64,000 nucleotides of DNA from Deltaproteobacteria bacterium (GCA_029262315.1 JAJCZP010000108.1:21449-85448); one strand, 5' to 3'. Counted from the stretch's first letter, positions 7,565 through 62,371 are shown. The notes: generated from the letters alone by a model not told the origin. Made by a program: numbers and translations.

Positions 7565-7580
7565 TTCCGAGTCTTGAGAA
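7565..7580. promoter_or_regulatory. palindromic operator TTCCGA-N4-TGAGAA
   Basis: Member of the recurring TTCNCA-N4-TGNGAA motif, ~40 bp upstream of a sigma-54 match. Confidence 0.6.
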
Positions 7581-7620
7581 TACGAAGTCTCAATGGCCCC
7601 GAACGTGGGTTGCGACGAGT

Positions 7621-7636
7621 GGGCACGTCGTTTGCT
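7621..7636 (+). promoter_or_regulatory. sigma-54 -24/-12 promoter (GGGCACG-TCGT-TTGCT)
   Basis: Near-perfect match to TGGCACG-N4-TTGCW, 29 nt before the CBS gene ATG. Confidence 0.75.
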
Positions 7637-7664
7637 GTTGTCCTAGCAGGAACGGGAGACGCCA

Positions 7665-8162
7665 ATGGACGACGCAATCCGCACCGCACGCGACGTGATG
7701 CAAACCAACTTGCTGACAATCTCGGCCGACGCGTCGCTCGTCGAGCTAGAACGGTTTCTGCTCCAACATCAGGTGGGAGGTGCTCCCGTCGTTGACGACC
7801 AGCAGCTCGTTGGGGTCGTCTCGCGCTCGGACATCGTCCGCCAGCTCGATCTCGATCGGGGTCTCGCGGACATCCTGGTGGACTATCAACACGATGGCGC
7901 ACTGCACGCGCCGCGCGCCGCGCTCCGTGAGGACGAATGGATCACGAGCGCCGCAACCGACCACTTCCGTGGCCTGCGGGTGCGCGATGTCATGATCCGG
8001 GACGTGATCACGGCGAGCCCAGATGCGTCCGTGCAGCAGGTCACGCGCACGATGCTCGACAATGGCGTGCATCGTGTCCTCATCACCGAAGATGAATTCC
8101 TCGTTGGCATCGTGACCAGCACCGACCTGATGCGCCTCGTCGTCGAGTACACATCCCGATAG
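7665..8162 (+). CDS. CBS-domain pair protein
   Basis: ARDVMQ..., GAPVVD..LVGVVSRSD, VRDVM, HRVLI..LVGIVTSTD. Confidence 0.92.
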   Translation: MDDAIRTARDVMQTNLLTISADASLVELERFLLQHQVGGAPVVDDQQLVGVVSRSDIVRQLDLDRGLADILVDYQHDGALHAPRAALREDEWITSAATDHFRGLRVRDVMIRDVITASPDASVQQVTRTMLDNGVHRVLITEDEFLVGIVTSTDLMRLVVEYTSR

Positions 8163-8220
8163 CGGGTTGCTGCCCGCCGTCGGTCTCGTCGACGCGATCG
8201 GGGGACGTCGTGTGTACGCC

Positions 8221-10167
8221 TCAGCCGGCGGAGAATGCGAGCTGCACGGCAACCCACCCGAGATGGGCGTCGTAGTCGCGGCCATCGTACAGCCCCTGGT
8301 CGAAGCTGAGGTATGCGTAGCCGCCGGTAAAGCTCAGGCGGTCGTTGACCCGATAGCCGCCGTCGAGGAACAGCCGGTGCGTCAGGTTGTCGAGCGAGCC
8401 GCCCGCGTCGACCAGCGTATAGCGTCCGCCGAGCGTCGTCTGGTCGTTCACGCGATATCGTGCCGCCAGCGCCGTGCTCAACGACCGTCCGCGAAACTCG
8501 ATCGGTGCAAAGGCGCCCAGATCGCGCCGTGGCGTGCCGACCTCGTACTTCCGGTTCACGAACGAGAGCATGCTGGTCACGACCAGGCCCGGTGCGGGGA
8601 CGGTCACGGCACGCAACTGGCCAATCTGCACATTCACGGAGGTCGTGGAATCCCCACCAATGTCCGTCCGCTCGTAGTCCTCGTGCGCGAACTCGCCGCG
8701 CGCTTCGAAAGTCGTGATTCGGCCCCATCGATACCGTCCCCCGAGGAATCCGGTGTGGGTCTCGCGGTGTCGATCCCCCAACGTATACTCGTTCAGGAGT
8801 TCGTCACGGTCCTCGTCGATGTCCTCGCGGCGGTACCGGTACCCGGCCTTGACGAGCAGCGAGCGGTCGGCCCGGATACGCGCCTCGAGCAACAACCGGT
8901 GCACGTCGCGCTTCTGGTCCGTTTCCTGAATTCGATCGATCCCGCTCAGGGGATCGGTGGCAGCCCCGAGCATCGACACGTCGAGATCACGATGTGCGTG
9001 TTCGTACCGATACATCCCGCGAAGCCGGGTCCGCGTCAGGCCCGTATAGCTCACATCCAGACGTGCGCGCTGCCGAGTCAGTTGCTTGTCCGTATCGCTC
9101 TCGACCACGCTCGTTCCACGCCGCCTCGTTTCCGACCCGTCGCCATCGCGATGCTGATCGACGATGGTATAGGTCGTACGAACGCGCAGGTGGCGCGCTG
9201 GTGAGAACGCCAGGCCGCTGTGACCGGCGTGGCTCTGTTGCGTCACGGAGATGCCGTTTGCCGTCCGCTCGAGGACGGAATCTGACTGCTGCGACGCATC
9301 GGCGTCCGCGTCCACCCAATAGTACCGGTAGCCCGCATGTCCGAGCACGTTCCACGTCGTCGGGGTGGCGATGTCGGCCCCCGCGTGCACCGTGGTCGTG
9401 TCGATATCGTCCGTGAAGCGCACGGCCTCCTGCGTCAGGTCGGTACGTACGTTCGTTTGATGCGTGGTGCTGCGACTCGACGCGTCGGTCCAGCCGGCCA
9501 GCAATCGCACATCAAACGGACCGGCCGGAAACACCCCCTCGAAATCGAGGGTATCGGAGCGAGTGTCGATGGCCTGGAACGCCGGAAACCGGAAGGCATA
9601 CGGACTCAAGCTCTCGACGACCGAGGCCTTGAGCAGATTTTCGTCGCCGTCGCTCGCGCGATGCGCGTAGGTGAGGCGCAGGTTGCTACGGGGGCCGAGT
9701 CGCACATCCGCGGCCACATCGGCGTTCGTCCGCACCAGCTCGAACTCCCGCCCCAGCTGCCCGGGCGCCGCTCTGCCAGCACCCGGACGGCGCAGATGAT
9801 CGTCGAAGAAGCTTTGCGAACGGCTGAACGCGCCCGTCAGGGTGTAGAGGCCCCGGCGGCCCCCACGCACATGGATCGTGGCGCCGCCGACGCCGCGGGC
9901 ATCCTCGATACCTTGGATGCTCGCGGCACCCTCGAAGTAGTTGCCACGCTCGTCGTGCCCGTCGAAACGGGTTTCGGCGCCGCCCCCGCTGCCGAGGGTG
10001 TCGTAGTCCTCACGGAATGCGCCCTCGCTCCCATCGACGCCGGTACCGCGCCCGACGGCGCGCCCGGTCATACTCATCGTCCACGTCGACCCATCCGTCC
10101 CGTCGGGCTCCGCGACCACGGAAGCTGGAAGCCCGAGCACCAGGACGACGAGCAGGATCCACATCAT
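8221..10167 (-). CDS. outer-membrane beta-barrel, MtrB/PioB-like porin partner of decaheme cytochrome
   Basis: Signal peptide MMWILLVVLVLGLPASVVA, ~648 aa, alternating amphipathic strands (GYRY, YTIVD, GYAY), near-terminal Phe. ATGA-coupled to the decaheme gene. Confidence 0.78.
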   Translation of the reverse strand: MMWILLVVLVLGLPASVVAEPDGTDGSTWTMSMTGRAVGRGTGVDGSEGAFREDYDTLGSGGGAETRFDGHDERGNYFEGAASIQGIEDARGVGGATIHVRGGRRGLYTLTGAFSRSQSFFDDHLRRPGAGRAAPGQLGREFELVRTNADVAADVRLGPRSNLRLTYAHRASDGDENLLKASVVESLSPYAFRFPAFQAIDTRSDTLDFEGVFPAGPFDVRLLAGWTDASSRSTTHQTNVRTDLTQEAVRFTDDIDTTTVHAGADIATPTTWNVLGHAGYRYYWVDADADASQQSDSVLERTANGISVTQQSHAGHSGLAFSPARHLRVRTTYTIVDQHRDGDGSETRRRGTSVVESDTDKQLTRQRARLDVSYTGLTRTRLRGMYRYEHAHRDLDVSMLGAATDPLSGIDRIQETDQKRDVHRLLLEARIRADRSLLVKAGYRYRREDIDEDRDELLNEYTLGDRHRETHTGFLGGRYRWGRITTFEARGEFAHEDYERTDIGGDSTTSVNVQIGQLRAVTVPAPGLVVTSMLSFVNRKYEVGTPRRDLGAFAPIEFRGRSLSTALAARYRVNDQTTLGGRYTLVDAGGSLDNLTHRLFLDGGYRVNDRLSFTGGYAYLSFDQGLYDGRDYDAHLGWVAVQLAFSAG

Positions 10168-12634: not shown

Positions 12635-12650
12635 TTCTCGATCATGGGAA
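12635..12650. promoter_or_regulatory. palindromic operator TTCTCG-N4-TGGGAA
   Basis: Recurring motif, in the AT-richer gap upstream of the nonaheme-decaheme-porin genes. Confidence 0.55.
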
Positions 12651-16519: not shown

Positions 16520-16535
16520 CGGCGCGGCTCTTGCT
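16520..16535 (+). promoter_or_regulatory. sigma-54 promoter (CGGCGCG-GCTC-TTGCT)
   Basis: GG-N10-GC with TTGC, just upstream of the CBS ATG at 16548. Confidence 0.7.
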
Positions 16536-16547: not shown

Positions 16548-16970
16548 ATGAATGCCAAGATCGACGATGTCATGATCGCGAACGCGATCGTCGCCACACC
16601 CGACGTCACCGTTGGAGAGATCCGCCGGCGAATGTTGGGCGAAGAGATTCACGCGCTCCCGGTCGTCAGTCCAGAGGGCGAGCCCATCGGCATCGTTACC
16701 TCCACCGACCTCGTCGCGGAGCCACCCGCCGATACGCCCGTTGCGCACATCATGAGCACGGGCGTGTTCACCGTGCCGCGCTACGCCGACGTGCACATCG
16801 CGGCCCGCATCATGCGGAACCACGGGTTGCACCATGTTGTCGTAACGCACGAGAAGCAGGTCGTCGGCATCGTGAGTTCGTTCGATCTCATCAAACTCGT
16901 CGAGGATCACCGCTTCGTCATGAAGAACGGGCCGACCGAGCCTCGTCGCCGTTCGCCGCAGCGATCCTAG
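16548..16970 (+). CDS. CBS-domain pair protein
   Basis: IHALPVV..GEPIGIVTSTD, HHVVV..VVGIVSSFD. Confidence 0.92.
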   Translation: MNAKIDDVMIANAIVATPDVTVGEIRRRMLGEEIHALPVVSPEGEPIGIVTSTDLVAEPPADTPVAHIMSTGVFTVPRYADVHIAARIMRNHGLHHVVVTHEKQVVGIVSSFDLIKLVEDHRFVMKNGPTEPRRRSPQRS

Positions 16971-16976
16971 ACGCGC

Positions 16977-19085
16977 GTGATTCCTACGGTCGAGGACCTG
17001 ACGAGTGCGCCGCTGACGCACCGGTTCGGGGACCTCTTCAATCCACCCGCGCTCACCAATTTTCGCGGCAGCGTGCAGGCTGCGATCGACATCACCGCCA
17101 TCCGGTGTCTGAACTTCCCGCCGTTCGCCACTTCCGACACGTTTCCACCCGTGACGTGGTCCGATTCGGTGACGGGCGCGCTCTTCGTCGACGGTCGGTA
17201 CTTCGCGTCCACCGGCCAGCCGGTCACTTTCGTCTGGCGTCCGGACCGCATCGTGCGCCGATCCACGTACGACGGCCTCCGGCTACGCTCCGACACGGTG
17301 CTTCCCATGGGGAGGACCGCGGCGATCGTTCGCTTACGGGTGAGAAACGTTAGCGGCGCGTCACGCCGCGTGCATCTGCGGTTCGGGTTCAAGGCGACGA
17401 TCACGATGAACACGTCGGACTGGGACCGCCCGATCGCACCCGCCGAGTTCGACAACGAGGTGAGTGCCGATGCGACGCGCAAGGCACTGCTGTTCGAGGC
17501 GCGCCATAGCACGGCGGTCAGTCTCCAAGGATGCGTGCCACTGGCGGACGCGGTGCGGGCGCACGGCGTCGAGGTCTCCCGCACCCTGCGATCGGGCGCC
17601 GTCTGGGAGCTGTACTACCTGAACGTCATCGCCGAAGACGGCGACGAGGCGCGTGCGACCTACGACGCACTGGCACAGGCGCCAGAGCACGCCTTCGCGC
17701 GCGCACGCGACGACTGGAATGCCGAACTCGCGGCGGCGTTCACGCCGGGCAACGATCGCTACTCTGGCGCCCTGCCTCGCCTCGAGACCGCCGACGAGGA
17801 CCTGCAGCACCTCTACCATCAAGGCATGCTCGGGGTCGTCTACTTCAAGCGTGAGACCCCGCGCGCCGTGACGTCACGTACGTATACGACGCTGATGCCG
17901 CGCTACTGGCAAACAATCAGCTGGCTCTGGGACCATCAGCTCTCGTCCATCGCCCACGTCATGCTCGACCCGTCCGTGACACGAGCAATGTGCGAGCAGT
18001 GGATGGCGCTCGACATCCACCAGATCATGGGAACCAACTGGATGACGGGACAGGGGCTCGGCTCGGCTTACGCGATCAACGACTACGCGATCATCAAGAT
18101 CGCCCACGACTACGTGCGATGGTCTGGCGACGAGGGCTGGCTCGGCCGCGACGTAACGACGGCCGCCGGCACCTCGCACGCCATCATCGACCGGTTGCAG
18201 AGCTACGCTGAGCACTGGCAGACACTCCGCACTCCTGCCGGGCTCGCCGACTACGGTGGTTTGAGCAACCTGCTCGAGTGCGTGGCCGCCTACACCCACG
18301 AGGTGGCGGGTCTGAACGCCGCAAACGTGTACGGACTCCGGGCCGTGGCGGCCATGCTCGCCGCGACGGGTCGCTCCGCCGACGCGCGTCGACTCGTGGA
18401 CGAGGCCGAGCGACTCCTCCCGCGAATCCAGACCCTGTACCGGGAGGGTGAGGGATTCTGGTGCGCACGCCACCGCGACGGCCGCCTCGAGCCGGTGCGA
18501 CACTGCTTCGATTTCCACACGATCCTGAACACCATCGGCGGTGATCTCAGCGCCCGCCAGCGAGACGAGATGGTCCGCTTCTTCCGCGAAGACCTGCAAA
18601 CCCCCACCTGGATGCACGCGCTCTCCCCGCGCGATGCCGACGCCATCTTCGACATCCGGCCTGACCATCAGTGGACCGGTGCCTACGTCGCATGGCCCGC
18701 CGAGGCGGCCACGGCACTGTTGGGCGCAGGCGAGGTCACCCTCGCACGAGACTGGATCCGTGGCCTCGCTCGTACTGCGCGACAGGGCCCGTTCGGCCAG
18801 GCGCACTTCGTCGAGGCCGCTGTCGCCCCTGAGGCGGACGGGGCTCGCAAGGCTCCATCCGAGTTCCCGTTTCTCACTGATTGGGCATGCGTCGCGGGAG
18901 GCTCCTGGGTACGTCTCATCGTCGAGGGCATCTTCGGCGTCGACGCCAGCCTGCGTGAGGGGCTCTCGGCACAGCCACGCATCAAAGCCTTCGATCCCGC
19001 GGCCCGCCTGCGAAACGTCCCCTATCAGGGGCGGCTCTACACGATCGATGCCTCGGGCGTGCACGCACAGGAGCGCGCCGTGTGA
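16977..19085 (+). CDS. six-hairpin (alpha/alpha)6 glycosidase-like protein
   Basis: 702 aa: beta-rich N-terminus then a helical catalytic-like region (WLWD, NLLEC, NAANV, FW, HQW.GAY.AWP). Operon with ROK kinase and PMI. Family not resolved. Confidence 0.6.
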   Translation: MIPTVEDLTSAPLTHRFGDLFNPPALTNFRGSVQAAIDITAIRCLNFPPFATSDTFPPVTWSDSVTGALFVDGRYFASTGQPVTFVWRPDRIVRRSTYDGLRLRSDTVLPMGRTAAIVRLRVRNVSGASRRVHLRFGFKATITMNTSDWDRPIAPAEFDNEVSADATRKALLFEARHSTAVSLQGCVPLADAVRAHGVEVSRTLRSGAVWELYYLNVIAEDGDEARATYDALAQAPEHAFARARDDWNAELAAAFTPGNDRYSGALPRLETADEDLQHLYHQGMLGVVYFKRETPRAVTSRTYTTLMPRYWQTISWLWDHQLSSIAHVMLDPSVTRAMCEQWMALDIHQIMGTNWMTGQGLGSAYAINDYAIIKIAHDYVRWSGDEGWLGRDVTTAAGTSHAIIDRLQSYAEHWQTLRTPAGLADYGGLSNLLECVAAYTHEVAGLNAANVYGLRAVAAMLAATGRSADARRLVDEAERLLPRIQTLYREGEGFWCARHRDGRLEPVRHCFDFHTILNTIGGDLSARQRDEMVRFFREDLQTPTWMHALSPRDADAIFDIRPDHQWTGAYVAWPAEAATALLGAGEVTLARDWIRGLARTARQGPFGQAHFVEAAVAPEADGARKAPSEFPFLTDWACVAGGSWVRLIVEGIFGVDASLREGLSAQPRIKAFDPAARLRNVPYQGRLYTIDASGVHAQERAV

Positions 19086-50541: not shown

Positions 50542-50601
50542 GGTGCCTCCTCCACTCCAGGACATTCGGTTCGCATGCCACGGCTGCCGTGCCGACCCGG
50601 A

Positions 50602-51300: not shown

Positions 51301-51345
51301 CCCACCACGCTCCTTTGCTAGTCCACGCAACTCAACCAATAGATC

Positions 51346-51361
51346 AGCAAGGGTCCTGCCA
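51346..51361 (-). promoter_or_regulatory. sigma-54 promoter (TGGCAGG-ACCC-TTGCT)
   Basis: Strong match; heads the BON-HPF-kinase-Fpr-USP unit. Confidence 0.8.
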
Positions 51362-51442: not shown

Positions 51443-51458
51443 TTCCCAAAAACGGGAA
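51443..51458. promoter_or_regulatory. palindromic operator TTCCCA-N4-CGGGAA between divergent sigma-54 promoters
   Basis: TTTCCC..GGGAAA inverted repeat. Confidence 0.68.
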
Positions 51459-51487: not shown

Positions 51488-51503
51488 TGGTGCGACCTTT
51501 GCT
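51488..51503 (+). promoter_or_regulatory. sigma-54 promoter (TGGTGCG-ACCT-TTGCT)
   Basis: Strong match; heads the USP-PFOR unit. Confidence 0.78.
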
Positions 51504-51516: not shown

Positions 51517-51993
51517 ATGAGCCAAACGAGTCCAGTCATCGTCGTTGCAACCGACTTCTCCCCGGGGAGCGAGGCCGCGCTTCGTGCGGCGGCACGCTTG
51601 TGGTCGAAGGACACCCGCCTGACGATTCACTTGGTGCATGCCCTCGAGCCCCTGACCTTCGTCGCGCCTCCGGGTGCGTACTGGTCCGCCTACGATAAGG
51701 ACCGGACTCGCGAAGTGCGTCAGACGTTGAGTACGGCCGCGACGCGTCTGCGGAAGCGCCTTGGTCCGCGGGTCAAGATTGCGCAGCACCTGCTAGCTGG
51801 ACCCGTCGACGTGGAGATCTGCCGGCTCGCCAAACGAGAACGCGCCGATCTGATCGTCGTCGGCACACACGGCCGCACCGGCCTGGCTCATGTGCTCATT
51901 GGAAGCGTCGCCGAGCGGGTCGTACGACACGCCGGCCGGCCCGTTCTGACGGTCCCGCTGCCGAAGCGTCGCGCGAGTACCGCTCGCAGATGA
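51517..51993 (+). CDS. universal stress protein
   Basis: ATDFSPGS, DLIVVGTHGRTGL.HVLIGSVAERVVRHA. Confidence 0.93.
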   Translation: MSQTSPVIVVATDFSPGSEAALRAAARLWSKDTRLTIHLVHALEPLTFVAPPGAYWSAYDKDRTREVRQTLSTAATRLRKRLGPRVKIAQHLLAGPVDVEICRLAKRERADLIVVGTHGRTGLAHVLIGSVAERVVRHAGRPVLTVPLPKRRASTARR

Positions 51994-54900
51994 TCGCGCG
52001 ACGTGTCGTCGCGCTCGACGGCAACGAGGCGACGGCCTTGGTGGCTCATCGAGCGAGCGAGGTCATCGCCATCTATCCCATCACGCCATCGTCACCCATG
52101 GGTGAGTTGGCGGACGAATGGTCGACGCAGGGGCGGACGAATCTCTGGGGCACGATCCCGCAGGTCGTCGAGATGCAATCCGAAGGAGGCGCCGCTGGAG
52201 CCGTCCACGGCTCACTTCAGGCCGGCGCCATGACCACGACGTTTACGGCCTCGCAGGGCCTGCTGCTCATGATCCCCAACATGTACAAGATTGCGGGTGA
52301 GCTGACTGCCTACTGCATGCACGTAGCGGCGCGCACCATCGCGACGCATGCCCTGTCGATCTTCGGCGACCATTCGGACGTCATGGCGTGTCGTCAGACC
52401 GGCTTCGCGATGTTGGCATCGTGCTCCGTCCAGGAGGCGCACGACAGCGCCGCGATCGCACACGCCGCGACGCTCCGCGCCCGCGTGCCGTTTCTGCACT
52501 TCTTCGACGGGTTCCGCACTTCCCACGAAGTCGCGCCGATCGAGGCCCTGAGCGAGGACGACCTCTCCAGCCTCATCGACGAGCCGTCCGTTCGCGCCCA
52601 TCGCGAGCGCGCGCTCACGCCCGACAAACCCGTCTTGCGAGGGACGGCCCAGAATCCGGATGTCTTCTTTCAGGCACGCGAGGCTGCCAACTGCTTCTAC
52701 GACGCCTGCCCCGCCATCGTACAAGAAATGATGGACCGTTTCGCAGAGCTCACCGGCCGCCGCTATCAGCTCTTCGACTACGCGGGTCACCCCGACGCCG
52801 ACCGGATCGTCGTCGTCATGGGATCCGGCGCCGACACAGTCCGAGAAACCGTGGAGTGGTTGGTCGCGGCGGGCGAACGAGTGGGCGTCGTTACCGTACG
52901 CCTCTACCGCCCCTTCTCGGTGGCGGCCTTCACGGAAGCGCTCCCCTGCTCGGCGCGTAGCATCGCGGTCCTCGACCGCACTAAAGAGCCTGGTGCTGTT
53001 GGCGAGCCATTGTATCAGGACGTTGTTGCCGCGCTGGTGGCAAGCGGACGGTTTCGCGACACGGCAGACCTGCGCGTCGTTGGCGGGCGCTACGGCCTGT
53101 CCTCGAAGGAGTTCACGCCGGCGATGGCCAAGGCGGTCTTCGACGAGTTGGCGTCCAGCGCACCACGCACCGGGTTCACCGTCGGCATCGTCGACGACGT
53201 CACCCACACCTCGCTTCCGGTCGACGCTGACTTCGCCATCGAGTCGGACGACACCGTGCGCGCCGTATTCTTTGGCCTTGGCTCCGACGGGACGGTCGGT
53301 GCGAACAAGAACTCGATCAAGATCATTGCCGAAGAGACCGATCACTACGCGCAAGGGTACTTCGTGTACGATTCCAAGAAGGCGGGGGCGATGACGATTT
53401 CGCATCTCCGCTTCGGTCCGCGCCCGATCGGATGCCATTACCTGATTCGTGAGGCGAGTTTCGTCGCCTGCCATCAGTTCGGCTTCTTGGAGCGCTACGA
53501 TGTGCTGGCGTACGCCGCGCCAGGCGCAACACTGCTGTTGAACGCGCCACACCCGCCCGATCAGCTTTGGGATCACCTTCCACGTGAGGTCCAGGAACAG
53601 ATTCTCGAGAAGAAGCTCGACGTCTATACGATCGACGCGTATCGCGTGGCCGGCGAGGCGGGCATGGGACGTCGCATCAATACCGTCATGCAAACATGCT
53701 TCTTCGCGATCTCGGGTGTACTTCCACCTGACGACGCAATCGCCAAGATCAAACAGACCATCGCGAAGACCTACGGCAAGAAGGGCGAGGCGGTCGTCGC
53801 ACGTAACTTCGCGGTCGTTGACACCACGCTCGCTCATCTGCATCGCCTCGCCCCCGGCACAGAGATTACCGCCTCACATGACCGCCCTCCGATGGTAGCC
53901 GAGGAGGCGCCGGACTTCGTGCAACGCGTGACGGCCGTGATGCTGGCCAATCAGGGCGATCTCCTTCCGGTCAGCGCCTTCCCGGTGGACGGTACGTGGC
54001 CGACGGGAACGAGCAAGTGGGAGAAGCGCAATATCGCGCTCGAGATCCCCGTGTGGGACGACGCGGTCTGCATCCAATGCAACAAGTGTGTCCTGGCCTG
54101 CCCGCACGCGGCCATCCGGGCGAAAGTCTATGACGTTCCCGCGCTCGAGGGTGCTCCCTCGACCTTCGCAACGACCGACTATCGAGCCTCCGACTTCAAG
54201 GGAGCCCAGTATACCTTGCAGGTCGCGCCCGAGGACTGCACCGGCTGCGAGCTTTGTGTCGCCGTCTGCCCGGCCAAGGACAAGGCGAACCCGAGGCACA
54301 AGGCCATCAACATGGCGCCCCAGGGGCCTCTGCGGGAGCAAGAGCGCGAGAACTACGCATTCTTCCTGTCCATCCCCGAGGTCGACCGTAGCGTGGTGAA
54401 GCTCGACAACAAGGGCACGCAGTTCCTGGAGCCTCTCTTCGAGTACTCGGGTGCATGCGCGGGGTGTGGTGAAACCCCCTACCTCAAACTCCTCAGCCAA
54501 TTGTTCGGCGATCGACTGCTGATCGCCAACGCGACCGGCTGCTCTTCGATCTACGGTGGGAATCTTCCCACGACACCATATACGACCAATCGCGATGGGC
54601 GCGGCCCGGCCTGGTCCAACTCGCTCTTCGAGGACAACGCCGAGTTCGGCCTCGGCATGCGGCTCGCGCTCGATGCCCACATTGATCACGACACGATCCT
54701 GCTTCGTACGCTGGCGGGCCAGGTCGGTGAGACCCTCGCCGAGGCCTTGCTCACCGCCGATCAATCGAGCGAGGCCGGGATCGCCGCACAGCGGGAGCGG
54801 GTGGCAGCCCTCCGTGTGAAGCTCCGCGACCTCGAAGGCGTCGACGCACGTCGCCTCGAACACCTCGCCGACTACCTCGTTCGCAAGAGCGTGTGGCTCG

Positions 54901-55580
54901 TCGGTGGCGATGGATGGGCCTACGACATCGGCTTCGGCGGGCTCGACCACGTCCTCAGTCTGCGCCGCGACGTGAACGTTCTGGTCCTCGACACCGAGGC
55001 CTACTCGAACACGGGAGGCCAACAATCGAAGGCGACCCCGCTCGGCGCCGCGGCGAAATTTGCCGCGGCCGGCAAGAGCATCGCCAAGAAGGATCTCGGA
55101 CTCGAAGCCATGAGCTACGGCCACGTCTATGTCGCTCGCATTGCCTTTGGCGCCCGCGACATCCAGACGGTCAACGCGCTCCGTGAAGCGGAGGCCTTTC
55201 CAGGACCGTCGCTCGTGATCGCGTACAGCCACTGCATCGCTCACGGCTACGATATGGCGCATGGCGCTGAGCAACAGAAGCTCGCGGTCGACTCCGGAAT
55301 CTGGCCGCTCTACCGCTTTGATCCACGGCGCGTCGAAGATGGAGAGCCGCCACTCCATCTCGACTCAGGCGCACCCAAGGTCTCCGTCGAACGCTACATG
55401 CGCAACGAGGCACGCTTTCGGATGGTCGAGAAGCAGGACCCTGCACGTTTCAAGTTGCTTCAGGCGCTGGCCTCACGTGACGCGGAGAGACGGATCGCCA
55501 TCTACCAGCAGCTGGCGGGCTTGAAAGTACCGCGGAGCGACGACCGGACGAAGGAGGATGCGGATCAGTCAGCCGCGTAG
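51990..55580 (+). CDS. nifJ: pyruvate:ferredoxin (flavodoxin) oxidoreductase
   Basis: YPITPS, MQSEGGAAG, two 4Fe-4S motifs, ACAGCGE, ATGCSSI, GGDGWAYDIG, YSNTGGQ; 1196 aa. Confidence 0.96.
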   Translation: MIARRVVALDGNEATALVAHRASEVIAIYPITPSSPMGELADEWSTQGRTNLWGTIPQVVEMQSEGGAAGAVHGSLQAGAMTTTFTASQGLLLMIPNMYKIAGELTAYCMHVAARTIATHALSIFGDHSDVMACRQTGFAMLASCSVQEAHDSAAIAHAATLRARVPFLHFFDGFRTSHEVAPIEALSEDDLSSLIDEPSVRAHRERALTPDKPVLRGTAQNPDVFFQAREAANCFYDACPAIVQEMMDRFAELTGRRYQLFDYAGHPDADRIVVVMGSGADTVRETVEWLVAAGERVGVVTVRLYRPFSVAAFTEALPCSARSIAVLDRTKEPGAVGEPLYQDVVAALVASGRFRDTADLRVVGGRYGLSSKEFTPAMAKAVFDELASSAPRTGFTVGIVDDVTHTSLPVDADFAIESDDTVRAVFFGLGSDGTVGANKNSIKIIAEETDHYAQGYFVYDSKKAGAMTISHLRFGPRPIGCHYLIREASFVACHQFGFLERYDVLAYAAPGATLLLNAPHPPDQLWDHLPREVQEQILEKKLDVYTIDAYRVAGEAGMGRRINTVMQTCFFAISGVLPPDDAIAKIKQTIAKTYGKKGEAVVARNFAVVDTTLAHLHRLAPGTEITASHDRPPMVAEEAPDFVQRVTAVMLANQGDLLPVSAFPVDGTWPTGTSKWEKRNIALEIPVWDDAVCIQCNKCVLACPHAAIRAKVYDVPALEGAPSTFATTDYRASDFKGAQYTLQVAPEDCTGCELCVAVCPAKDKANPRHKAINMAPQGPLREQERENYAFFLSIPEVDRSVVKLDNKGTQFLEPLFEYSGACAGCGETPYLKLLSQLFGDRLLIANATGCSSIYGGNLPTTPYTTNRDGRGPAWSNSLFEDNAEFGLGMRLALDAHIDHDTILLRTLAGQVGETLAEALLTADQSSEAGIAAQRERVAALRVKLRDLEGVDARRLEHLADYLVRKSVWLVGGDGWAYDIGFGGLDHVLSLRRDVNVLVLDTEAYSNTGGQQSKATPLGAAAKFAAAGKSIAKKDLGLEAMSYGHVYVARIAFGARDIQTVNALREAEAFPGPSLVIAYSHCIAHGYDMAHGAEQQKLAVDSGIWPLYRFDPRRVEDGEPPLHLDSGAPKVSVERYMRNEARFRMVEKQDPARFKLLQALASRDAERRIAIYQQLAGLKVPRSDDRTKEDADQSAA

Positions 55581-55586
55581 AACCCT

Positions 55587-56576
55587 ATGGATCTTGCGAC
55601 GACCTATCTCGGCTTCCAGCTCCCGCATCCACTGATGCCCGGGGCATCGCCGCTGATCGAGAATCTCGACACGGTCCGAGAACTCGAGGACGCCGGCGCG
55701 GCGGCGATTGTGATGCGTTCGCTGTTCGAGGAGCAGATCACGGCCGAGCAACTCGGGGCCTTCCACAGCATGGAGTTGCATGCGGGCTCCCATCCCGAGG
55801 CACAGTCGTATTTCCCCGACACCGACGTTTTCGCGCTCGGCCCCGATGAGTACCTCGAGAAGATTCGCCGTATCAAAGAGGCGGTCGCGGTGCCGGTCAT
55901 CGCCTCGCTGAACGGTACGAGCATGGGGGGGTGGTTGGATTTCTCCCGGCGCATGGTCGAGGCGGGGGCCGACGCGCTCGAGCTGAACGTCTACTACCTG
56001 GCGACGGACCCCGACGAGAACGCCGCCATGGTGGAGGGGCGCATCGTCGAGATGCTCCGCGCCGTCAAGGCGCAGGTGCCAGTTCCCGTCGCGGTCAAAC
56101 TCTCGCCCTTCTACTCCGCGCTCGCGCATCTGGCGCGCGAGCTCGATCGTGCCGGTGCCGACGGCCTCGTGCTCTTCAATCGATTTTATCAGCCCGATAT
56201 CGACGTCGAGGCTCTCGAGGTCGATCGTCGGCTGCATCTCTCGGACTCGAGCGAGCTACCACTGCGATTGCGCTGGCTCGCGATCCTCGACGGCCACGTG
56301 CGTGCGTCCCTCGCGTGCTCGGGCGGAGTGCATTCCAGCCTTGACGCCATCAAGGCCGTCATGTGCGGCGCCCATGCCGTGCAGATGGTGTCCGGCCTCC
56401 TCCGGCGCGGGCCGGATCAACTGCGCACGATACGCCAGGAGATCGCGGAGTGGTTGGAGACCCACGAATACGATTCCTTGCAGCAGATGCAGGGCAGCAT
56501 GAGCCTCATTCATTGCCCCGATCCGAGCGCGTACGAACGCACCAATTACACCGAGATCCTTCATACTTGGCGCTAA
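55587..56576 (+). CDS. dihydroorotate dehydrogenase-like FMN protein (nifJ-associated type)
   Basis: MDL.TTYLG, SLFEEQ, IASLNG, VKLSP, FNRFYQPD. Lacks the class-1 catalytic SCP. Confidence 0.88.
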   Translation: MDLATTYLGFQLPHPLMPGASPLIENLDTVRELEDAGAAAIVMRSLFEEQITAEQLGAFHSMELHAGSHPEAQSYFPDTDVFALGPDEYLEKIRRIKEAVAVPVIASLNGTSMGGWLDFSRRMVEAGADALELNVYYLATDPDENAAMVEGRIVEMLRAVKAQVPVPVAVKLSPFYSALAHLARELDRAGADGLVLFNRFYQPDIDVEALEVDRRLHLSDSSELPLRLRWLAILDGHVRASLACSGGVHSSLDAIKAVMCGAHAVQMVSGLLRRGPDQLRTIRQEIAEWLETHEYDSLQQMQGSMSLIHCPDPSAYERTNYTEILHTWR

Positions 56577-56598
56577 GCCGCCCCGCGGAGAGCCTTCC

Positions 56599-58077
56599 AT
56601 GACCGAAGTCGATATCCGATCCGACCAACTGTCCCGGTTCCGCCCGATCGTCGGCCGGCACCGCCACTATCGCGCCGCCAAAATCGCCGAGCTGATTCGG
56701 ACGCGCCTCGAGGGCCGCGCCCTCTGGAACGTCAATACGACTGCCGCCGGTGGCGGTGTCGCCGAGATGCTCCATGTGCTCCTGCCCTACGTTCGCGGCG
56801 CCGGTGCCGATGCCCGTTGGCTCGTGATGGACGGCGATCCGGACTTCTTTCGAGTCACGAAGCGCCTGCACCACGCATTGCATGGCTCGCTCGGTGACGG
56901 CTCGCCTCTGGACGACGACGCGCACGCGATCTACGACGCGTGCGCCCGCGCCAACCTTCCCTACCTCGACCGGGTGCGCCCGCGAGACATCGTCCTGCTC
57001 CACGACCCGCAGACGGCGGGCCTCGCCGCGCCGCTCATGGAGGCCGGTGCGCAGGTGATCTGGCGATGTCATATCGGCCACGACGGGAGGGACGCCGAGG
57101 TGGAGGCGGGATGGCATTTCCTCGACCGCTACCTCCGTGACGTTCCGGCCTTCGTGTTCTCGCGCCGTGCCTACGTGCCGCGACAGTACCAGTCGCGAAC
57201 GACGATCATCACGCCGAGTATCGACGCGTTCTGTCCGAAGAACCAAGAGCTCGACGACGATACCGCGCGCGCGATTCTCGTGCACACCGGGCTCGTCGAG
57301 GGGCCCATGGGTCCCGGATCGCCAACCTTCACACGCAACGACGGCACGTCCGCCGACGTCAATCGCCGTGCCGAGGTCGTCCGGTCCGGGCGAGCCCCGA
57401 GCTGGGACACCCCGCTCGTCGTACAGGTGTCGCGGTGGGACCCCTTGAAGGACATGGCCGGCGTCATGCACGGCTTCGCGCGACTGGCGGAGACCGATGC
57501 TTCGCTCGGGGCGCATCTCGTGCTCGCCGGCCCGAACGTGAGCGCGGTCACCGATGATCCCGAGGGTGCTGTGACCTTCAAAGAGGTCGTCGCCGCCTGG
57601 GGGGCATTGCCCGCCGAGATCAGGGAGCGCGTACACTTGGCGTCGCTTCCCATGGCAGACATCCAGGAAAACGCCGCCATGGTGAACGCACTGCAACGAC
57701 ATGCGGCCATCATCGTGCAGAAGAGCTTGCACGAGGGATTCGGTCTGACCGTGACGGAGGCGATGTGGAAGAGACGCCCGGTCGTCGCCAGCGCCGTTGG
57801 GGGCATTCAGGACCAGATCGTCGACGGGGTGCACGGCGTGCTCCTGCGCGATCCGACCGACCTCCAGGCCTTCTCGGACGCCATGGCCGGTATCCTAGAC
57901 AACGACGAGCTCGCCGCCCACCTCGGCAAGAACGCCGAGGAACGTGTGCGTGAGCGCTTCCTCGGACTCGGGCACCTGGTCAAGTACGCTCGCTTGATCG
58001 ATCGGCTCGACCGCGAACGTGGCGCCAAGCGCCGCGCGCCCGCCCGTCAGACCGACCCGAGCCGTGCCCGTCGGTAG
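56599..58077 (+). CDS. GT4 glycosyltransferase, TreT-like trehalose synthase
   Basis: NTTA.GGGVAEML, HDPQ, WRCH, VSRWDPLKD, QKS..EGFGLTVTEAMWK. Confidence 0.87.
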   Translation: MTEVDIRSDQLSRFRPIVGRHRHYRAAKIAELIRTRLEGRALWNVNTTAAGGGVAEMLHVLLPYVRGAGADARWLVMDGDPDFFRVTKRLHHALHGSLGDGSPLDDDAHAIYDACARANLPYLDRVRPRDIVLLHDPQTAGLAAPLMEAGAQVIWRCHIGHDGRDAEVEAGWHFLDRYLRDVPAFVFSRRAYVPRQYQSRTTIITPSIDAFCPKNQELDDDTARAILVHTGLVEGPMGPGSPTFTRNDGTSADVNRRAEVVRSGRAPSWDTPLVVQVSRWDPLKDMAGVMHGFARLAETDASLGAHLVLAGPNVSAVTDDPEGAVTFKEVVAAWGALPAEIRERVHLASLPMADIQENAAMVNALQRHAAIIVQKSLHEGFGLTVTEAMWKRRPVVASAVGGIQDQIVDGVHGVLLRDPTDLQAFSDAMAGILDNDELAAHLGKNAEERVRERFLGLGHLVKYARLIDRLDRERGAKRRAPARQTDPSRARR

Positions 58078-58092: not shown

Positions 58093-58141
58093 TTCGCGGA
58101 ACTGGGAGGCGTGCGTTCGCGGCAGTTCCTGGAATTGAGAT
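58093..58141. promoter_or_regulatory. palindromic operator variants TTCGCG-N4-TGGGAG (58093) and TTCCTG-N4-TGAGAT (58126)
   Basis: Degenerate copies of the recurring motif upstream of a sigma-54 match. Confidence 0.45.
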
Positions 58142-58200: not shown

Positions 58201-58216
58201 GGGTACGCTAGTTGCA
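58201..58216 (+). promoter_or_regulatory. sigma-54 promoter (GGGTACG-CTAG-TTGCA)
   Basis: Strong match, 15 nt before ATG 58231. Confidence 0.75.
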
Positions 58217-58230: not shown

Positions 58231-59127
58231 ATGAGCGATCTTGCGTACACCCCGAGTCCCCGCGTGGCACAGATCGGCTCGATCATCCGTGAGTCGGCAA
58301 GCACCCACACGCTTGTGTTGGTGCTGCAGTCGCCCGCCCCCGAGCTTGACGCAGCGCGTCCTGGTCAGTTCATCGTGGTGTCCGTCTTTGGACACGGCGA
58401 GGCGGCGTTCGTGCTCTCGAGCCTGCCGGGTCCGGGGAGTCTCCCCGGAACGGTGGGATGCGTGCCTGGAAGCGTCGTCGTGACAGTTCGCCGCGCCGGT
58501 GACCTCAGCGCGGCGCTGCTCGACCTCCCCGTGGGAGCGACGGTCGGCGTCCGGGGCCCGTACGGGTGCGGCTTTCCGCGCAGCGATCTCGCGCAGCCGA
58601 CGATCTACGTCGCGGGGGGCTGCGGATTGGCGGCGCTCAAGGCCGCGATCGACCTTCACATCGCGACGCGACCGTTCGCGACCGACATCGCCGTGGTGTA
58701 CGGCGCACGCACCCCGGATGCCCGCGTGCTCCGATCGGCCCTCGAGGCGTGGAGCTACGCCGAGAACGTACTCGTGCTCGAATGCGTGGAGGAGGCTGAT
58801 GACGCGTGGCAAGGCCGACGCGGCACGGTCGTCGACCACCTACCCGACGCGCTCGCCCGGGCCCGGCCGACCCGCGCGGCGATTAGTGGCCCTGCCGCGA
58901 TGCTACGGCCGATTGCGGAGACGCTGATCCGCGCCGGGATCGACGCCTCCCAGGTGCATCTCGCCGTCGAGCACTCCATGGAGTGCGCCACCGGAGCGGG
59001 TGGGCACGACGATCTGAACCACCGCCGCCTGTGTACTGACGGCCCGGTGTTCTCGTATGCCGAGCTACGCGGGCGGCCGGATGCTTTCGGGCCGCCGCCC
59101 GGTCCCAGCACCGCTCTCGCGCGCTGA
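58231..59127 (+). CDS. AsrB/PyrK/hydrogenase-gamma-like FAD/NAD-binding protein with degenerate 2Fe-2S motif
   Basis: PGQF..VSV.G.GE, RGPYG.GF, AGGCGLA, YGARTP, C-terminal MECATGAGGHD..LCTDGPVF. Confidence 0.8.
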   Translation: MSDLAYTPSPRVAQIGSIIRESASTHTLVLVLQSPAPELDAARPGQFIVVSVFGHGEAAFVLSSLPGPGSLPGTVGCVPGSVVVTVRRAGDLSAALLDLPVGATVGVRGPYGCGFPRSDLAQPTIYVAGGCGLAALKAAIDLHIATRPFATDIAVVYGARTPDARVLRSALEAWSYAENVLVLECVEEADDAWQGRRGTVVDHLPDALARARPTRAAISGPAAMLRPIAETLIRAGIDASQVHLAVEHSMECATGAGGHDDLNHRRLCTDGPVFSYAELRGRPDAFGPPPGPSTALAR

Positions 59128-59179
59128 GGGCTCTCGCATCAAGCAGAAATCCGCTACATAGTGCGACGGGGGCTCAGTC

Positions 59180-60475
59180 ATGGCGAATCGTAAAAAGCTC
59201 GCGATCCTCGTGGGTGGCGGGCCGGCGCCCGGCATCAACGCAGTCATTAGTGCCGCGACAATTCGCGCCGTGCTCGGGGGCGTCGACGTTCTCGGCATAC
59301 GCGATGGGTTCGAGTGGATTATGCACGGTGACATCGATCACGTGCGCCCGCTCACCATTCGTGACGTGAGTCGCATCCATGTTCGCGGTGGATCGTACAT
59401 CGGCATCTCGCGCGCGAACCCGACGCGAGACCCGGAGCATCTCGAGAACGTCGTGACGTCCCTGCTCCGACTGAACGTGTCACAGCTGATCACGATCGGT
59501 GGCGACGACACGGCCTTCTCGGCGATGAAGCTCGCGGAGCGCTCCGCCGGGCGCATTCGGGTCGTGCACGTTCCCAAGACGATCGACAACGATCTGGATC
59601 TCCCGCCGGACATCGACACGTTCGGGTATCGGACCGCCCGCCACTTCGGTTCCGAGATCGTGAAGAACATCATGGTCGACGCCCAGACGACGTCGCGCTG
59701 GTATTTCATCATCGCGATGGGGCGCAAAACCGGCCACCTCGCCCTCGGCATTGGCAAAGCAGCCGGAGCGACCGTCACCCTGATTCCAGAAGAGTTCGGG
59801 CCGGATGGCATTCGCCTGAAAGCGATCGTGGACACTCTGGTGGGCGCGATCATCAAGCGTCTCAGCTATGGCCGGCGCGACGGCGTAGCGGTCGTCGCCG
59901 AGGGTGTCGTCCTCGGGATGCACCCCGAGGACATGGCCTACCTCCCCGACGTCGAACGCGATGCGCACGGCAACCTGCGCATCGCCGAGGTCGATATCGG
60001 CGAAACGCTCAAGAAGGCCGTGCAGGTCCGGCTCCGTGAGCTGGAAGTCAAAAGCACCATCGTAGCCAAGAACATCGGCTACGAGCTGCGCTGCGCCGAC
60101 CCCATTCCGGACGATCTCGAGTACACCCGCGACCTCGGGTACTGCGCCGCCAAGCATCTCCTCGACGGCGGCAATGCGTCGATGGTGTCTCTGCAAGGAG
60201 GTCGCTTCGTCGCCGTGTCGTTCGCTTCCATGCTCGATGCAGAGACCGGCCGTGCGCGGATCCGCGCAGTGGATGTCTCGTCCGTCCGCTACGCGATCGG
60301 TCGGCGCTTCATGATCCGACTTCGGCGTGATGACTTCGAGGATCCACACGAGCTTGCGAAGTTCGCCGCAACCGCACGGATGTCCCTCGAGAAGTTTCGC
60401 GAGGAGTTCGAATACCTGATGTCGCTGGAGCCCCCGCAGCTCCAGCTCGAGCCCCCGGAGGCCGCTACCACCTGA
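59180..60475 (+). CDS. pfp: pyrophosphate-dependent 6-phosphofructokinase
   Basis: GGGPAPGIN, GGDDT and PKTIDND (PPi signature), MGR, GYELRC. Confidence 0.88.
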   Translation: MANRKKLAILVGGGPAPGINAVISAATIRAVLGGVDVLGIRDGFEWIMHGDIDHVRPLTIRDVSRIHVRGGSYIGISRANPTRDPEHLENVVTSLLRLNVSQLITIGGDDTAFSAMKLAERSAGRIRVVHVPKTIDNDLDLPPDIDTFGYRTARHFGSEIVKNIMVDAQTTSRWYFIIAMGRKTGHLALGIGKAAGATVTLIPEEFGPDGIRLKAIVDTLVGAIIKRLSYGRRDGVAVVAEGVVLGMHPEDMAYLPDVERDAHGNLRIAEVDIGETLKKAVQVRLRELEVKSTIVAKNIGYELRCADPIPDDLEYTRDLGYCAAKHLLDGGNASMVSLQGGRFVAVSFASMLDAETGRARIRAVDVSSVRYAIGRRFMIRLRRDDFEDPHELAKFAATARMSLEKFREEFEYLMSLEPPQLQLEPPEAATT

Positions 60476-61570: not shown

Positions 61571-61680
61571 CAGGCCATCCTTCTCAAGTCTCCCGAAGAA
61601 AACGGAGGTTGTCGGCTCACGGTTCCCGTTGCGTGGCCTGACACCTATCTATGAGACACCTCAGGGTCTGGCAACACGCC

Positions 61681-61696
61681 TGCAACGGTCCCACCG
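61681..61696 (-). promoter_or_regulatory. possible sigma-54 promoter (CGGTGGG-ACCG-TTGCA)
   Basis: GG-N10-GC with TTGCA; weak -24 half. Confidence 0.4.
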
Positions 61697-61783
61697 ACGC
61701 GTTCCTGCGCCTGCGGTCGCCGGACGAGGTAGCGACAGAGGCGCTCGAGTCGCTACCTGAAAGGATCCGGTGCAGGCTTCCCA

Positions 61784-62140
61784 TCAGGCATCGCCACCGG
61801 GGCGCAGCCGCACGCGCATGGCGCCGTCCTCGCCGCGCGCGTCGGGATCGGGGCTCGCGCTCTCGACCCAACGGTGCCCTTCCTTCGCGAGCCAACGCGG
61901 TACGACTTCGCGGAGAATCCCGTGCCCGCCCGGACTGCCCCGACCCTTTCCATAGATGATGCGCACGTCGCGATGCCCGTCGGTGGCCGCGTCGCGGACG
62001 AAGCGCTCGGTAGCGGCGAGCGCGTCTTTGACACCGAGACCGTGGAGGTCGAGGACCGGGCTCCCTCGTCCGAGCGCCGGGCTCGCGCGCCGAAGGAGCG
62101 CGGTCAGCAGGCGATCGAGTAGATTTCCGAGAGCCGACAT
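61784..62140 (-). CDS. stand-alone Smr/MutS2-domain protein
   Basis: LDLHG, IIYGKG.GS, GILR..V..WL, G.DGA. Confidence 0.87.
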   Translation of the reverse strand: MSALGNLLDRLLTALLRRASPALGRGSPVLDLHGLGVKDALAATERFVRDAATDGHRDVRIIYGKGRGSPGGHGILREVVPRWLAKEGHRWVESASPDPDARGEDGAMRVRLRPGGDA

Positions 62141-62355
62141 ATCCTTCCTGCGCTTTCTCATGCCTGAGCGATCCGAGGCTGTCGACGACCGCACGCTCGT
62201 ATTGTGGGGGTGTGCCAGGGGTGTGTCGCCGTTGGCATCGTGGTGTGCCATCGCGTTTGCGAGTGGCACACTGTCTCAAAACGGACGCATGGGCATGTGC
62301 CGTGGCGGGAGCGCTATGCTCGGCGATACGGGGGCTTTGGCGGTGTTCCGTCGCC

Positions 62356-62371
62356 TGGCAGCGGATTTGCT
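62356..62371 (+). promoter_or_regulatory. sigma-54 promoter (TGGCAGC-GGAT-TTGCT)
   Basis: Good match upstream of the GAF histidine kinase. Confidence 0.65.

Follow-up and report, generated by a model that had tools for sequence, protein, structure and literature searches.

A palindrome predicted to act as the enhancer site of a dispersed sigma-54 regulon with low-oxygen-type gene content in a Candidatus Binatia genome

Introduction

In Myxococcus xanthus, the NtrC-like response regulator NmpR activates sigma-54 promoters from paired dyads (S1 and S2) that lie 14-15 nt apart, and the operon to which it belongs is autoregulated and begins with a CBS-domain gene (PMC11841059). The NmpR regulon comprises 7 promoters with Usp, a P-type ATPase with a cbb3 oxidase, and hemerythrin among its products, the operator reads GCGCA-N5-TGCGC, the proposed signal is oxygen limitation, and the protoglobin-coupled kinase NmpU serves as master sensor (PMC11841059). 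This NmpRSTU/NmpR regulon is the closest known system to the one described here, which concerns a stretch of 64,000 nucleotides (hereafter the window) from a Deltaproteobacteria bacterium (GCA_029262315.1, JAJCZP010000108.1:21449-85448), in which a degenerate 16-bp palindrome recurs upstream of -24/-12 promoter elements. The window corresponds to C108:21449-85448 of a 5.92-Mb genome in 298 contigs (65% G+C, rated 99.96% complete) and is contained wholly or partly in four DNA runs, which come from two studies, with no RNA run listed for it. Close relatives of one of the genome's proteins are encoded on contigs titled as Candidatus Binatia metagenome-assembled genomes (MAGs), placing the organism in an uncultured lineage.

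The Binatia genome shares several traits with the NmpR system. Its palindromes also occur as paired dyads, with 15-16 nt between the 16-mers as compared with 14-15 nt in Myxococcus; a regulator operon on contig C43 is led by a CBS gene and has the motif and a promoter upstream; Usp, a P-type ATPase together with a cbb3 oxidase, and hemerythrin are among the predicted targets; and oxygen limitation is the proposed signal here too. Unlike in the NmpR system, the Binatia operator is TTCYCR-N4-YGRGAA, and matches to the NmpR box with at most one mismatch stay at chance level in the window (16 versus 11.6 expected, a count that 10 of 100 shuffles reach). No protoglobin kinase of the NmpU type was found, with PF11563 giving 0 matches in this nearly complete genome. 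The predicted Binatia regulon is also larger, with ~20-25 promoters versus 7, and adds triacylglycerol synthases, a pyruvate:ferredoxin oxidoreductase (PFOR), a hibernation factor, trehalose and glycolysis genes, and a Crp/Fnr regulator.

More distant parallels exist in other bacteria. DosR (DevR) of Mycobacterium tuberculosis is a NarL/LuxR-type regulator that acts at sigma-70-type promoters through a 20-bp box, and its regulon holds genes for Usp, a CBS-pair protein, a WS/DGAT triacylglycerol synthase, a P-type ATPase, an S30AE-type translation/hibernation factor, phosphofructokinase, ferredoxin-linked metabolism, and an AAA_33-type kinase-like protein. The gene content of the Binatia set is strikingly similar, and in both cases islands of such genes have a short dyad upstream. 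However, the Binatia promoters are of the -24/-12 type, the predicted activator is an AAA+ enhancer-binding protein (EBP), and the box sequence is different, such that the likeness is one of function and content and not of membership. In rhizobia, the FixL-FixJ-FixK cascade controls the cbb3 oxidase, FixL being a haem-PAS histidine kinase. The Binatia system resembles it in a candidate oxygen-sensor kinase that may carry a haem-PAS domain and in having a cbb3 oxidase among its predicted targets, but differs in its output, an EBP with sigma-54 in place of FixJ/FixK, and in a Leu where FixL has its distal Arg. Enteric NtrC (GlnG), finally, activates glnAp2 from tandem dyads upstream of -24/-12 elements in a face-of-helix-dependent manner, and has the domain order REC-AAA+-HTH_8. 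Tandem dyads, helix-face phasing and this domain order recur in the Binatia system, and the NtrC model TIGR01818 is the second-best NCBIfam model for its candidate regulator; yet the score of 411.6 bits falls below the equivalog cut-off of 558.6, the operator differs, and the targets are not nitrogen genes.

A literature search found no description of the operator TTCYCR-N4-YGRGAA and no sigma-54 regulon in Binatia/Binatota. An initial annotation of the window had proposed that one activator, encoded elsewhere, controls the whole island from the palindrome. As set out below, the palindrome very probably functions as a sigma-54 enhancer, and it is likely to be the upstream activating sequence of a single EBP. 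The initial proposal is partly supported: it was right in kind and overstated in scope.

Results

All ten palindromes of the initial annotation are present at their coordinates with the letters reported, and two sites absent from it were found, one at 29534 (31 bp from its partner at 29503) and one at 27889. The consensus given there, TTCNCA-N4-TGNGAA, describes a real motif in idealized form: it matches exactly once in the window (at 16475, with 0.03 expected) and six times in the whole genome, and other copies deviate from it at 1-3 positions. A refitted matrix, derived like all site matrices from this genome, has the degenerate consensus TTCYCR-N4-YGRGAA.

That the shared palindrome serves sigma-54 promoters is supported by tests of co-occurrence, orientation, unseeded dyad counting, phasing, and tandem spacing, all five of which are independent of the initial choice of sites. 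Promoters were searched with the pattern TGGCAC-N5-TTGC, counting mismatches, and site distances were measured to the promoter's first base (TGG). A matrix trained on window sites was applied only outside the window, where 9 of 38 matches scoring 15 bits or more are accompanied, 10-200 bp off, by a promoter of at most one mismatch that points away from the site. By comparison, such a promoter accompanies 1.0% of random positions and 1.9% of random intergenic ones. Among 55 non-window matches of at least 14 bits, 9 promoters are directed away from the site and 1 toward it. When gapped dyads were enumerated without a seed in the 140-bp stretches preceding all 331 promoter matches that have no more than one mismatch, TTC.C-N6-G.GAA came out first (8 versus 1, p = 3e-7); the background consisted of 1058 intragenic 2-mismatch matches and was thus about three times larger, and 376 patterns with at least 8 occurrences were scored out of ~34,500 tried.

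The sites are also regularly placed. Relative to the first TGG base they form a ladder at -45, -56, -67, -78, -88, -98, -109, and -118, and a Rayleigh test at 10.5 bp within this genome is significant (n = 22, R = 0.67, p = 5e-5). Pairs of sites are frequently 31-32 bp apart, and a strict tandem pattern gave 4 matches at this spacing versus 0 at each of five control spacings. Perfect 5-mer dyads yielded nothing useful, the motif being too degenerate, and a sigma-54 matrix built from matches with at most one mismatch was dropped as it merely mirrored its selection rule. A second dyad, GTCA-N6-TGAC, is enriched upstream of sigma-54 matches genome-wide (9 versus 2, p = 7e-7) and is probably the operator of another EBP.

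The same architecture is found among 40 related genomes. Scanning 20 kb around the orthologue of the C43 regulator in 15 relatives with the own-genome matrix returned 34 sites scoring 13 bits or more. As a yardstick, the genome studied here has 82 matches of 14 bits or more in 5.92 Mb, or ~4 per 300 kb. A correctly oriented promoter-like element lies 30-200 bp from 31 of the 34 sites, as opposed to 8.5% of random positions and 2 of 34 in the wrong-orientation control. The relatives' sites fall on the same 10.5-bp ladder (n = 40, R = 0.77, p = 6e-11, the genomes not being independent), and it is common for one palindrome to be shared by a divergent promoter pair, sitting at -45 relative to one promoter and at -88 relative to its partner. 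Of the 40 relatives, 16 contain the strict tandem pattern and 1 contains its backwards control.

These controls bear on the alternative that a low-information, GC-poor dyad happens to lie in AT-richer intergenic DNA near weak promoter look-alikes. Some of the data might be read this way. Promoter look-alikes by themselves barely exceed chance, with 69 in the window versus 54.6 +/- 7.5 expected and 3 of 100 shuffles reaching 69. Genome-wide, intergenic enrichment is seen for matches with no mismatch (14 of 38) and one mismatch (70 of 297), and 2-mismatch matches are at background, with 405 of 2567 being intergenic, no more than the 15% non-coding share. In the window there is a single exact copy of the consensus, and simple composite IUPAC patterns joining palindrome and promoter, including in a 41-genome scan, gave little signal over controls. 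Nevertheless, chance and composition are refuted as an explanation by the co-occurrence, orientation, phasing and tandem-spacing results and by the conservation in relatives, each of which had its own controls.

The features of the window, in its own coordinates, are as follows.

7565..7580, enhancer palindrome TTCCGAGTCTTGAGAA, starting 56 bp upstream of the promoter's first base; 19.5 bits
7621..7635 (+), sigma-54 promoter GGGCACGTCGTTTGC, 1 mismatch
7665..8162 (+), CBS-pair protein gene, the first gene after promoter 7621; then 8167-9204, no family
12635..12650, orphan palindrome TTCTCGATCATGGGAA, inside the cytochrome gene cluster
16444-16459 and 16475-16490, tandem palindromes 31 bp apart, at -76 and -45
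16520..16534 (+), sigma-54 promoter CGGCGCGGCTCTTGC, 2 mismatches; ATG 13 nt past the GC
16548..21786 (+), CBS-led operon: CBS protein 16548-16970, 702-aa protein 16977-19085, ROK kinase 19082-20032, 585-aa protein 20029-21786
21849..21864, palindrome CTCGCAGTTCTGCGAA, at -54
21903..21917 (+), sigma-54 promoter TGGCGCGCCTCTTGC, 1 mismatch
21944..22948 (+), helix-hairpin-helix (HHH_8/HHH_5) protein gene, start placed 26 nt past the promoter, behind GGGAGG
26646..27227 (-), hemerythrin gene, ATG 15 nt past the GC
27243..27257 (-), sigma-54 promoter TGGAACGGTTCCTGC, 2 mismatches
27311..27326, palindrome CTCCCATTTCTGGGAA, at -69
27362..27772 (-), single-domain receiver protein gene
27787-27801 (-), tentative internal promoter AGGCATCGAATTTGC, in the 3' end of the PAS kinase gene, 14 nt before the receiver ATG
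27889-27904, palindrome accompanying this tentative promoter, also within the 3' end of the PAS kinase gene; 14.2 bits
27723..29558 (-), PAS-PAS-HisKA-HATPase histidine kinase; open reading frame (ORF) probably over-long at its 5' end
29503-29518 (16.0 bits) and 29534-29549 (11.0 bits), tandem palindromes 31 bp apart, at -88 and -57
29591..29605 (+), sigma-54 promoter CGGCATTCTCCGTGC, 3 mismatches; GG and GC retained
29602..31940 (+), WS/DGAT-CBS fusion (triacylglycerol or wax-ester synthase), followed by CBS protein 31503-31940; listed ORF from 29602, real start later, ~29617 or 29659
39946..42873 (-), P-type cation ATPase gene, ~280 nt downstream of promoter 43151
43151..43165 (-), sigma-54 promoter TGGTACGAGAGTTGC, 1 mismatch
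43287..43302, palindrome TTCTCAGGAATAGGAA, at -137
50185..51340 (-), BON-domain protein gene, then S30AE ribosome hibernation factor (50185-50565); BON ORF listed as 50602-51462, real start below 51347
51347..51361 (-), sigma-54 promoter TGGCAGGACCCTTGC, 1 mismatch; shared palindrome at -97
51443..51458, palindrome TTCCCAAAAACGGGAA, serving both divergent promoters: -97 leftward, -45 rightward
51488..51502 (+), sigma-54 promoter TGGTGCGACCTTTGC, 2 mismatches
51517..58077 (+), Usp-led operon: Usp (ATG 51517, 14 nt past the GC), PFOR 51990-55580, DHO_dh-like protein 55587-56576, TreT-like trehalose synthase/GT4 56599-58077
58093..58108, palindrome TTCGCGGAACTGGGAG, at -108; weak second site (8.8 bits) at -75
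58201..58215 (+), sigma-54 promoter GGGTACGCTAGTTGC, 2 mismatches
58231..60475 (+), genes for an NAD-binding oxidoreductase (ATG 15 nt past the GC) and phosphofructokinase (59180-60475)
62356..62370 (+), sigma-54 promoter-like element TGGCAGCGGATTTGC, 1 mismatch; before the GAF-HisKA-HATPase kinase (ORF 62212-63936)

Nine of the -24/-12 matches of the initial annotation hold with at most two mismatches and that at 29591 with three. The minus-strand promoters placed at 27242, 43150, and 51346 exist, each one base away from the coordinate given. The match it called weak, at 61681(-) (61671-61685), reads TTGCAG without the GG and is not a credible promoter. At 62356(+) the promoter match is present and the enhancer site is absent, the nearest palindrome in the window matrix scan being one of 12.6 bits at -201; membership of this promoter in the regulon is doubtful because no convincing palindrome accompanies it.

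At most window promoters the start codon follows 13-29 nt past the GC. Across the genome, 19 of 110 intergenic promoter matches with at most one mismatch have a start codon 11-16 nt past the -12 GC, the distances peaking at 13-14 nt, and the same holds for 182 of 3000 intergenic positions drawn at random; window examples of such short gaps are 16534 to 16548, 27243 to 27227, 51502 to 51517, and 58215 to 58231. Because start codons often lie at this distance, the data imply that sigma-54 mRNAs are leaderless or nearly so, both inside and outside the regulon.

Family scans of ~60 window ORFs identified five CBS-pair proteins, two Usp proteins, two hemerythrins, and two WS/DGAT acyltransferases, one of them fused to CBS. 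They further identified the PFOR, the TreT-like glycosyltransferase and phosphofructokinase, the S30AE hibernation factor beside the BON protein, an AAA_33 protein, a 2-hydroxyacid dehydrogenase, glutamate dehydrogenase, an Na/H exchanger, the P-type ATPase, an NQR operon, and multihaem cytochromes, as well as the PAS-PAS-HisKA (27723-29558) and GAF-HisKA (62212-63936) histidine kinases and the single-domain receiver. In the CBS-led operon, neither the 702-aa (16977-19085) nor the 585-aa (20029-21786) protein has a Pfam, NCBIfam, or PDB relative. An Atlas search places the former near the six-hairpin glycosidases of the MGH1-like, trehalase, and rhamnosidase types, which can serve as a lead only, and returned nothing for the latter. 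Since a ROK kinase lies between the two long proteins, this operon may mobilize a compatible solute or glycan. The 702-aa protein and a 700-aa family-less protein that is likewise under the motif were considered as paralogues and found not to be paralogous.

The initial annotation noted that the copy at 12635 lacks an adjacent promoter, and indeed no -24/-12 element was found within 150 bp on either side. This orphan (12635-12650) sits between a NapC/NirT-type cytochrome gene and multihaem cytochrome genes. In the related genome G033, tandem sites and sigma-54 promoters lie between cytochrome c and NapC/NirT genes (L145, G033:C14, 10912-10958). In view of this counterpart, the window cytochrome cluster may belong to the regulon through an unrecognized promoter.

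The claim that one activator controls the whole island is overstated, since only ~10 window promoters carry the motif, and the window matrix scan found no site at the NQR operon, ApbE, the methyltransferases, GST, or most of the cytochrome genes. Because the same architecture occurs on at least a dozen other contigs and in relatives, the regulon is not a feature of the island, which is instead the largest cluster of a dispersed regulon. Genome-wide, ~24 promoters pass the combined criteria, with those on C84, C138, and C212 being doubtful. Beyond the window, the predicted targets include an operon on C43 encoding CBS, EBP, cytochrome/Rieske/cytochrome b, and molybdoenzyme proteins; DsbD_2, cbb3 oxidase genes, a second P-type ATPase, and a Usp-CBS fusion on C238; hydrolase and WS/DGAT genes on C252; an MMPL transporter (C276); a SnoaL-like protein (C294); an ATC_hydrolase-domain protein (C177); a TrkA-type K+ channel (C235); and an alpha/beta hydrolase (C161). 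Two high-scoring palindromes, L095 (C27) at 2778 and L096 (C135) at ~4337 (20.4 and 19.4 bits), lack any sigma-54 match within 250 bp; a patatin-like phospholipase gene lies downstream of one, and the other is between a family-less gene and an ABC-2 permease gene.

On contig C46, divergent targets encode a Crp/Fnr-type regulator (C46:6402-7115) and a 336-aa protein with a weak match to R2-like ligand-binding oxidase. A single palindrome pair serves both promoters (L009, 6227-7115), and the regulator has an N-terminal Cys cluster and an ETAIR helix. The placement of a Crp/Fnr-type gene under the palindrome pair suggests a regulatory cascade beneath the sigma-54 activator. It also raises the question of whether the palindrome is instead bound by a dimeric co-regulator that is no EBP, such as this very protein, with the true enhancer located elsewhere. 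The 16-bp dyad has the geometry of an FNR box (5-6 bp half-sites with an N4 spacer), ETAIR conforms to the FNR-like E-x-x-x-R recognition helix, and site 12635 is without a sigma-54 promoter. However, orthologues of the C46 protein (at least 52% identity) occur in only 7 of the 40 relatives, for which it was rejected as the conserved binder, and none was found in the architecture-bearing genomes G012, G008, G013, G018, G001, G033, and G036. Moreover, sigma-54 promoters each need an enhancer and no second dyad common to these promoters is conspicuous in their upstream DNA, while tandem sites three turns apart and phasing out to ~-140 fit EBP enhancers. We therefore regard binding by such a co-regulator as very improbable, and return to the palindrome as an EBP enhancer.

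The genome contains rpoN, without which the initial annotation considered its proposal void: a PF04552 match at C265:96040-96513 (215 bits) lies in an open frame of 573 aa. Its statement that the window encodes no activator is likewise correct; of 30 PF00158 matches in the genome, the sole one on this contig is at C108:12296-12814, outside the window. It had pointed to an EBP just beyond the window or elsewhere, and a candidate can now be named, a REC-AAA+-HTH_8 protein on contig C43 (C43:5846-7255, minus strand). This protein has REC, Sigma54_activat (PF00158, 233 bits), AAA_lid, and HTH_8 domains, contains the GAFTGA and Walker A motifs, and is encoded by the second gene of the operon led by a CBS gene (7282-7734). 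Among the 26 EBP loci of the genome, only this one has the motif upstream, as two sites of 21.1 and 12.3 bits that are 41 bp apart.

Orthologues of the C43 protein are found in 28 of the 40 relatives with 60-81% identity, as compared with at most 47% for paralogues, and are surrounded by regulon-type genes (CBS, Usp, AAA_33, cytochrome c, and ccoN). A match of 14 bits or more lies within 1 kb upstream in 15 of 26 orthologue loci, and lowering the threshold to 10 bits raises this number to 19. Not counted among the 26 are L033 and L038, both truncated by contig ends, and L040, a 46% paralogue. A promoter of the form CGGCAYG-N4-TTGR is conserved after the site in 14 loci, followed in the loci checked by a start codon 13-15 nt on. 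The 14 loci with this promoter are L002 (C43, ~7745-7760, minus strand), L012, L013, L015, L017-L025, and L027. In genome G006, the CBS-activator operon has sites at -86 and -45 plus the signature promoter, and the orthologue itself has broken reading frames (at least four frame pieces at 4796-6779 of L167, G006:C6:230000-242000), which fits either assembly indels, in a genome 68% complete in 20 contigs, or a pseudogene.

The phyletic distribution of the C43 protein largely follows that of its presumed sites. An orthologue is present in 15 of 16 tandem-positive relatives, and 10 of 11 relatives without an orthologue have no tandem match. ccoN occurs in 10 of the 40 relatives, all with a C43 orthologue, so that there is no ccoN genome without it for comparison; as a phyletic test, PFOR offers only two genomes without the activator. 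Homologues from Longimicrobium (48% identity) show no match of at least 13 bits at any of 7 loci.

The sites could also belong to a different EBP, either a paralogue or one missing from the assembly, with the C43 operon merely a target. The exception among the tandem-positive relatives speaks for this. In G033 (rated 100% complete, 350 contigs), clear tandem sites accompany sigma-54 promoters at genes for CBS, cytochrome c, and NapC proteins, yet full-length, REC, and HTH queries found no C43 orthologue in it (best identities 46%, 50%, and 41%), and the motif is upstream of none of its seven detected EBP loci. Furthermore, 11 of the 26 orthologue loci have no upstream match of at least 14 bits, the ~26 EBP loci of the genome provide alternatives, and autoregulation is no proof of binding: the upstream motif marks the activator operon as a member of the regulon, which does not by itself imply that its product binds the site. 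Against a different EBP stand the absence of the motif upstream of all other 25 EBP loci and the presence of the C43 orthologue in nearly all tandem-positive relatives, and loss of an 8-kb contig is plausible in a 350-contig assembly, so the gene may simply be unbinned in G033. The EBP nearest the window (C108:11831-13228; L003 10329-11852) was rejected, as its orthologues are found in only 6 of 40 relatives and the architecture occurs in many where none was found. This REC-AAA+-HTH_8 protein, whose gene lies 8 kb before the window and next to those for a NosD/beta-helix protein and a large VWA protein, has no palindrome. Weighing these points, we consider a different EBP unlikely and the C43 protein the favored candidate for an autoregulated activator, an assignment held at modest confidence because G033 combines motif and promoters with no detected orthologue.

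Two candidate sensor kinases, absent from the initial annotation, are encoded in the window (27723-29558 and 62212-63936). For the PAS kinase 27723-29558, FixL is the best NCBIfam model (NF041777), at 207.6 bits versus an equivalog cut-off of 850, and FixL is also its best match among haem-PAS domains of known structure. The second of its PAS domains can be aligned with these FixL haem domains (E = 6e-16), the proximal His falling at the corresponding position. Homologues with 34-48% identity adjoin the C43 orthologue in G021 and lie 2.8-8 kb from it in G023, G004, and G031. This FixL-like kinase is the best lead for the sensor, as judged from its predicted domains and neighborhood.

Discussion

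We propose that an NtrC-type response regulator binds in dimeric form to a single palindrome, or to a pair of them with a spacing of 31-32 bp (41-42 bp at the regulator's own operon). The sites would start 45 to ~140 bp upstream of the promoter, in ~10.5-bp steps on the same helix face as the -24/-12 elements. Upon phosphorylation, the regulator would assemble into an AAA+ ring whose GAFTGA loop contacts sigma-54 and opens the promoter, and one palindrome could serve two divergent promoters. This mechanism is deduced from the anatomy of sites and promoters. According to the family scans, the predicted targets would comprise CBS-pair and Usp proteins, hemerythrins, WS/DGAT triacylglycerol synthases, PFOR, a trehalose-synthase-like glycosyltransferase, phosphofructokinase, the ribosome hibernation factor with the BON protein, P-type ATPases, a cbb3 oxidase, c-type cytochromes, and the Crp/Fnr-type regulator. 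The C43 protein would regulate its own synthesis through the motif and the unusual -12 promoter of its CBS-led operon. This promoter keeps GGCAY at -24 and has TTGG or TTGA at -12, and its conserved non-canonical -12 may set basal expression.

A high-affinity oxidase, hemerythrins, PFOR, a lactate-type dehydrogenase, storage lipid synthesis, the hibernation factor, and Usp and CBS nucleotide-binding proteins together point to oxygen or energy limitation as the probable signal.

Besides the G033 and orthologue-locus data discussed above, several points weigh against this interpretation. The regulon was read from the DNA of an uncultured MAG lineage, and its signal from gene content. Many window promoters carry 2-3 mismatches, a class that is at background genome-wide, and the activator's own promoter lacks the canonical GC. 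Site 12635 has no recognizable promoter, and only 6 of 14 activator-bearing relatives have the motif at their PFOR orthologues. Gene calling used a crude GC3-based script, making gene starts approximate, and the related genomes are non-independent samples, so that cross-genome p-values overstate. On the sensory side, the second PAS domain of the FixL-like kinase has Leu at the distal Arg position of FixL, and the GAF kinase was rejected as a conserved sensor, having no close orthologue in relatives (best identity 50%).

Taken together, it is possible, though we offer this only tentatively, that Binatia, an uncultured lineage of phylum rank, run a DosR-like dormancy program by means of sigma-54 and one autoregulated NtrC-type regulator with the operator TTCYCR-N4-YGRGAA. 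Such a program would cover triacylglycerol storage, ribosome hibernation, Usp/CBS nucleotide sensors, PFOR-based fermentation, trehalose, and the high-affinity cbb3 oxidase. Its input might come from a FixL-like haem-PAS kinase and not from a protoglobin or DosS-type GAF kinase. Many of its messages, as well as other sigma-54 messages, might be leaderless, with 5' ends no more than ~3 nt from the start codon, and the TTGR of the regulator's own promoter could allow basal expression.

Binatia are known only from metagenomes, and a regulon read from sequence is one of few windows on their lifestyle. The operator, the 10.5-bp ladder, and the two-way use of sites present an unusually clean anatomy that is directly testable, and the motif offers a means of annotating the regulon in further Binatia genomes. 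The system would constitute a second, independent case, beside NmpR of Myxococcus, of an NtrC-type regulator placed over a low-oxygen gene set, and would present a convergence in content with the mycobacterial DosR regulon through a different transcription mechanism. For the organisms themselves, the regulon predicts that Binatia would respond to oxygen or energy limitation by making storage lipid, putting ribosomes into hibernation, and switching their respiratory and fermentative enzymes, all coordinated by one sigma-54 activator.

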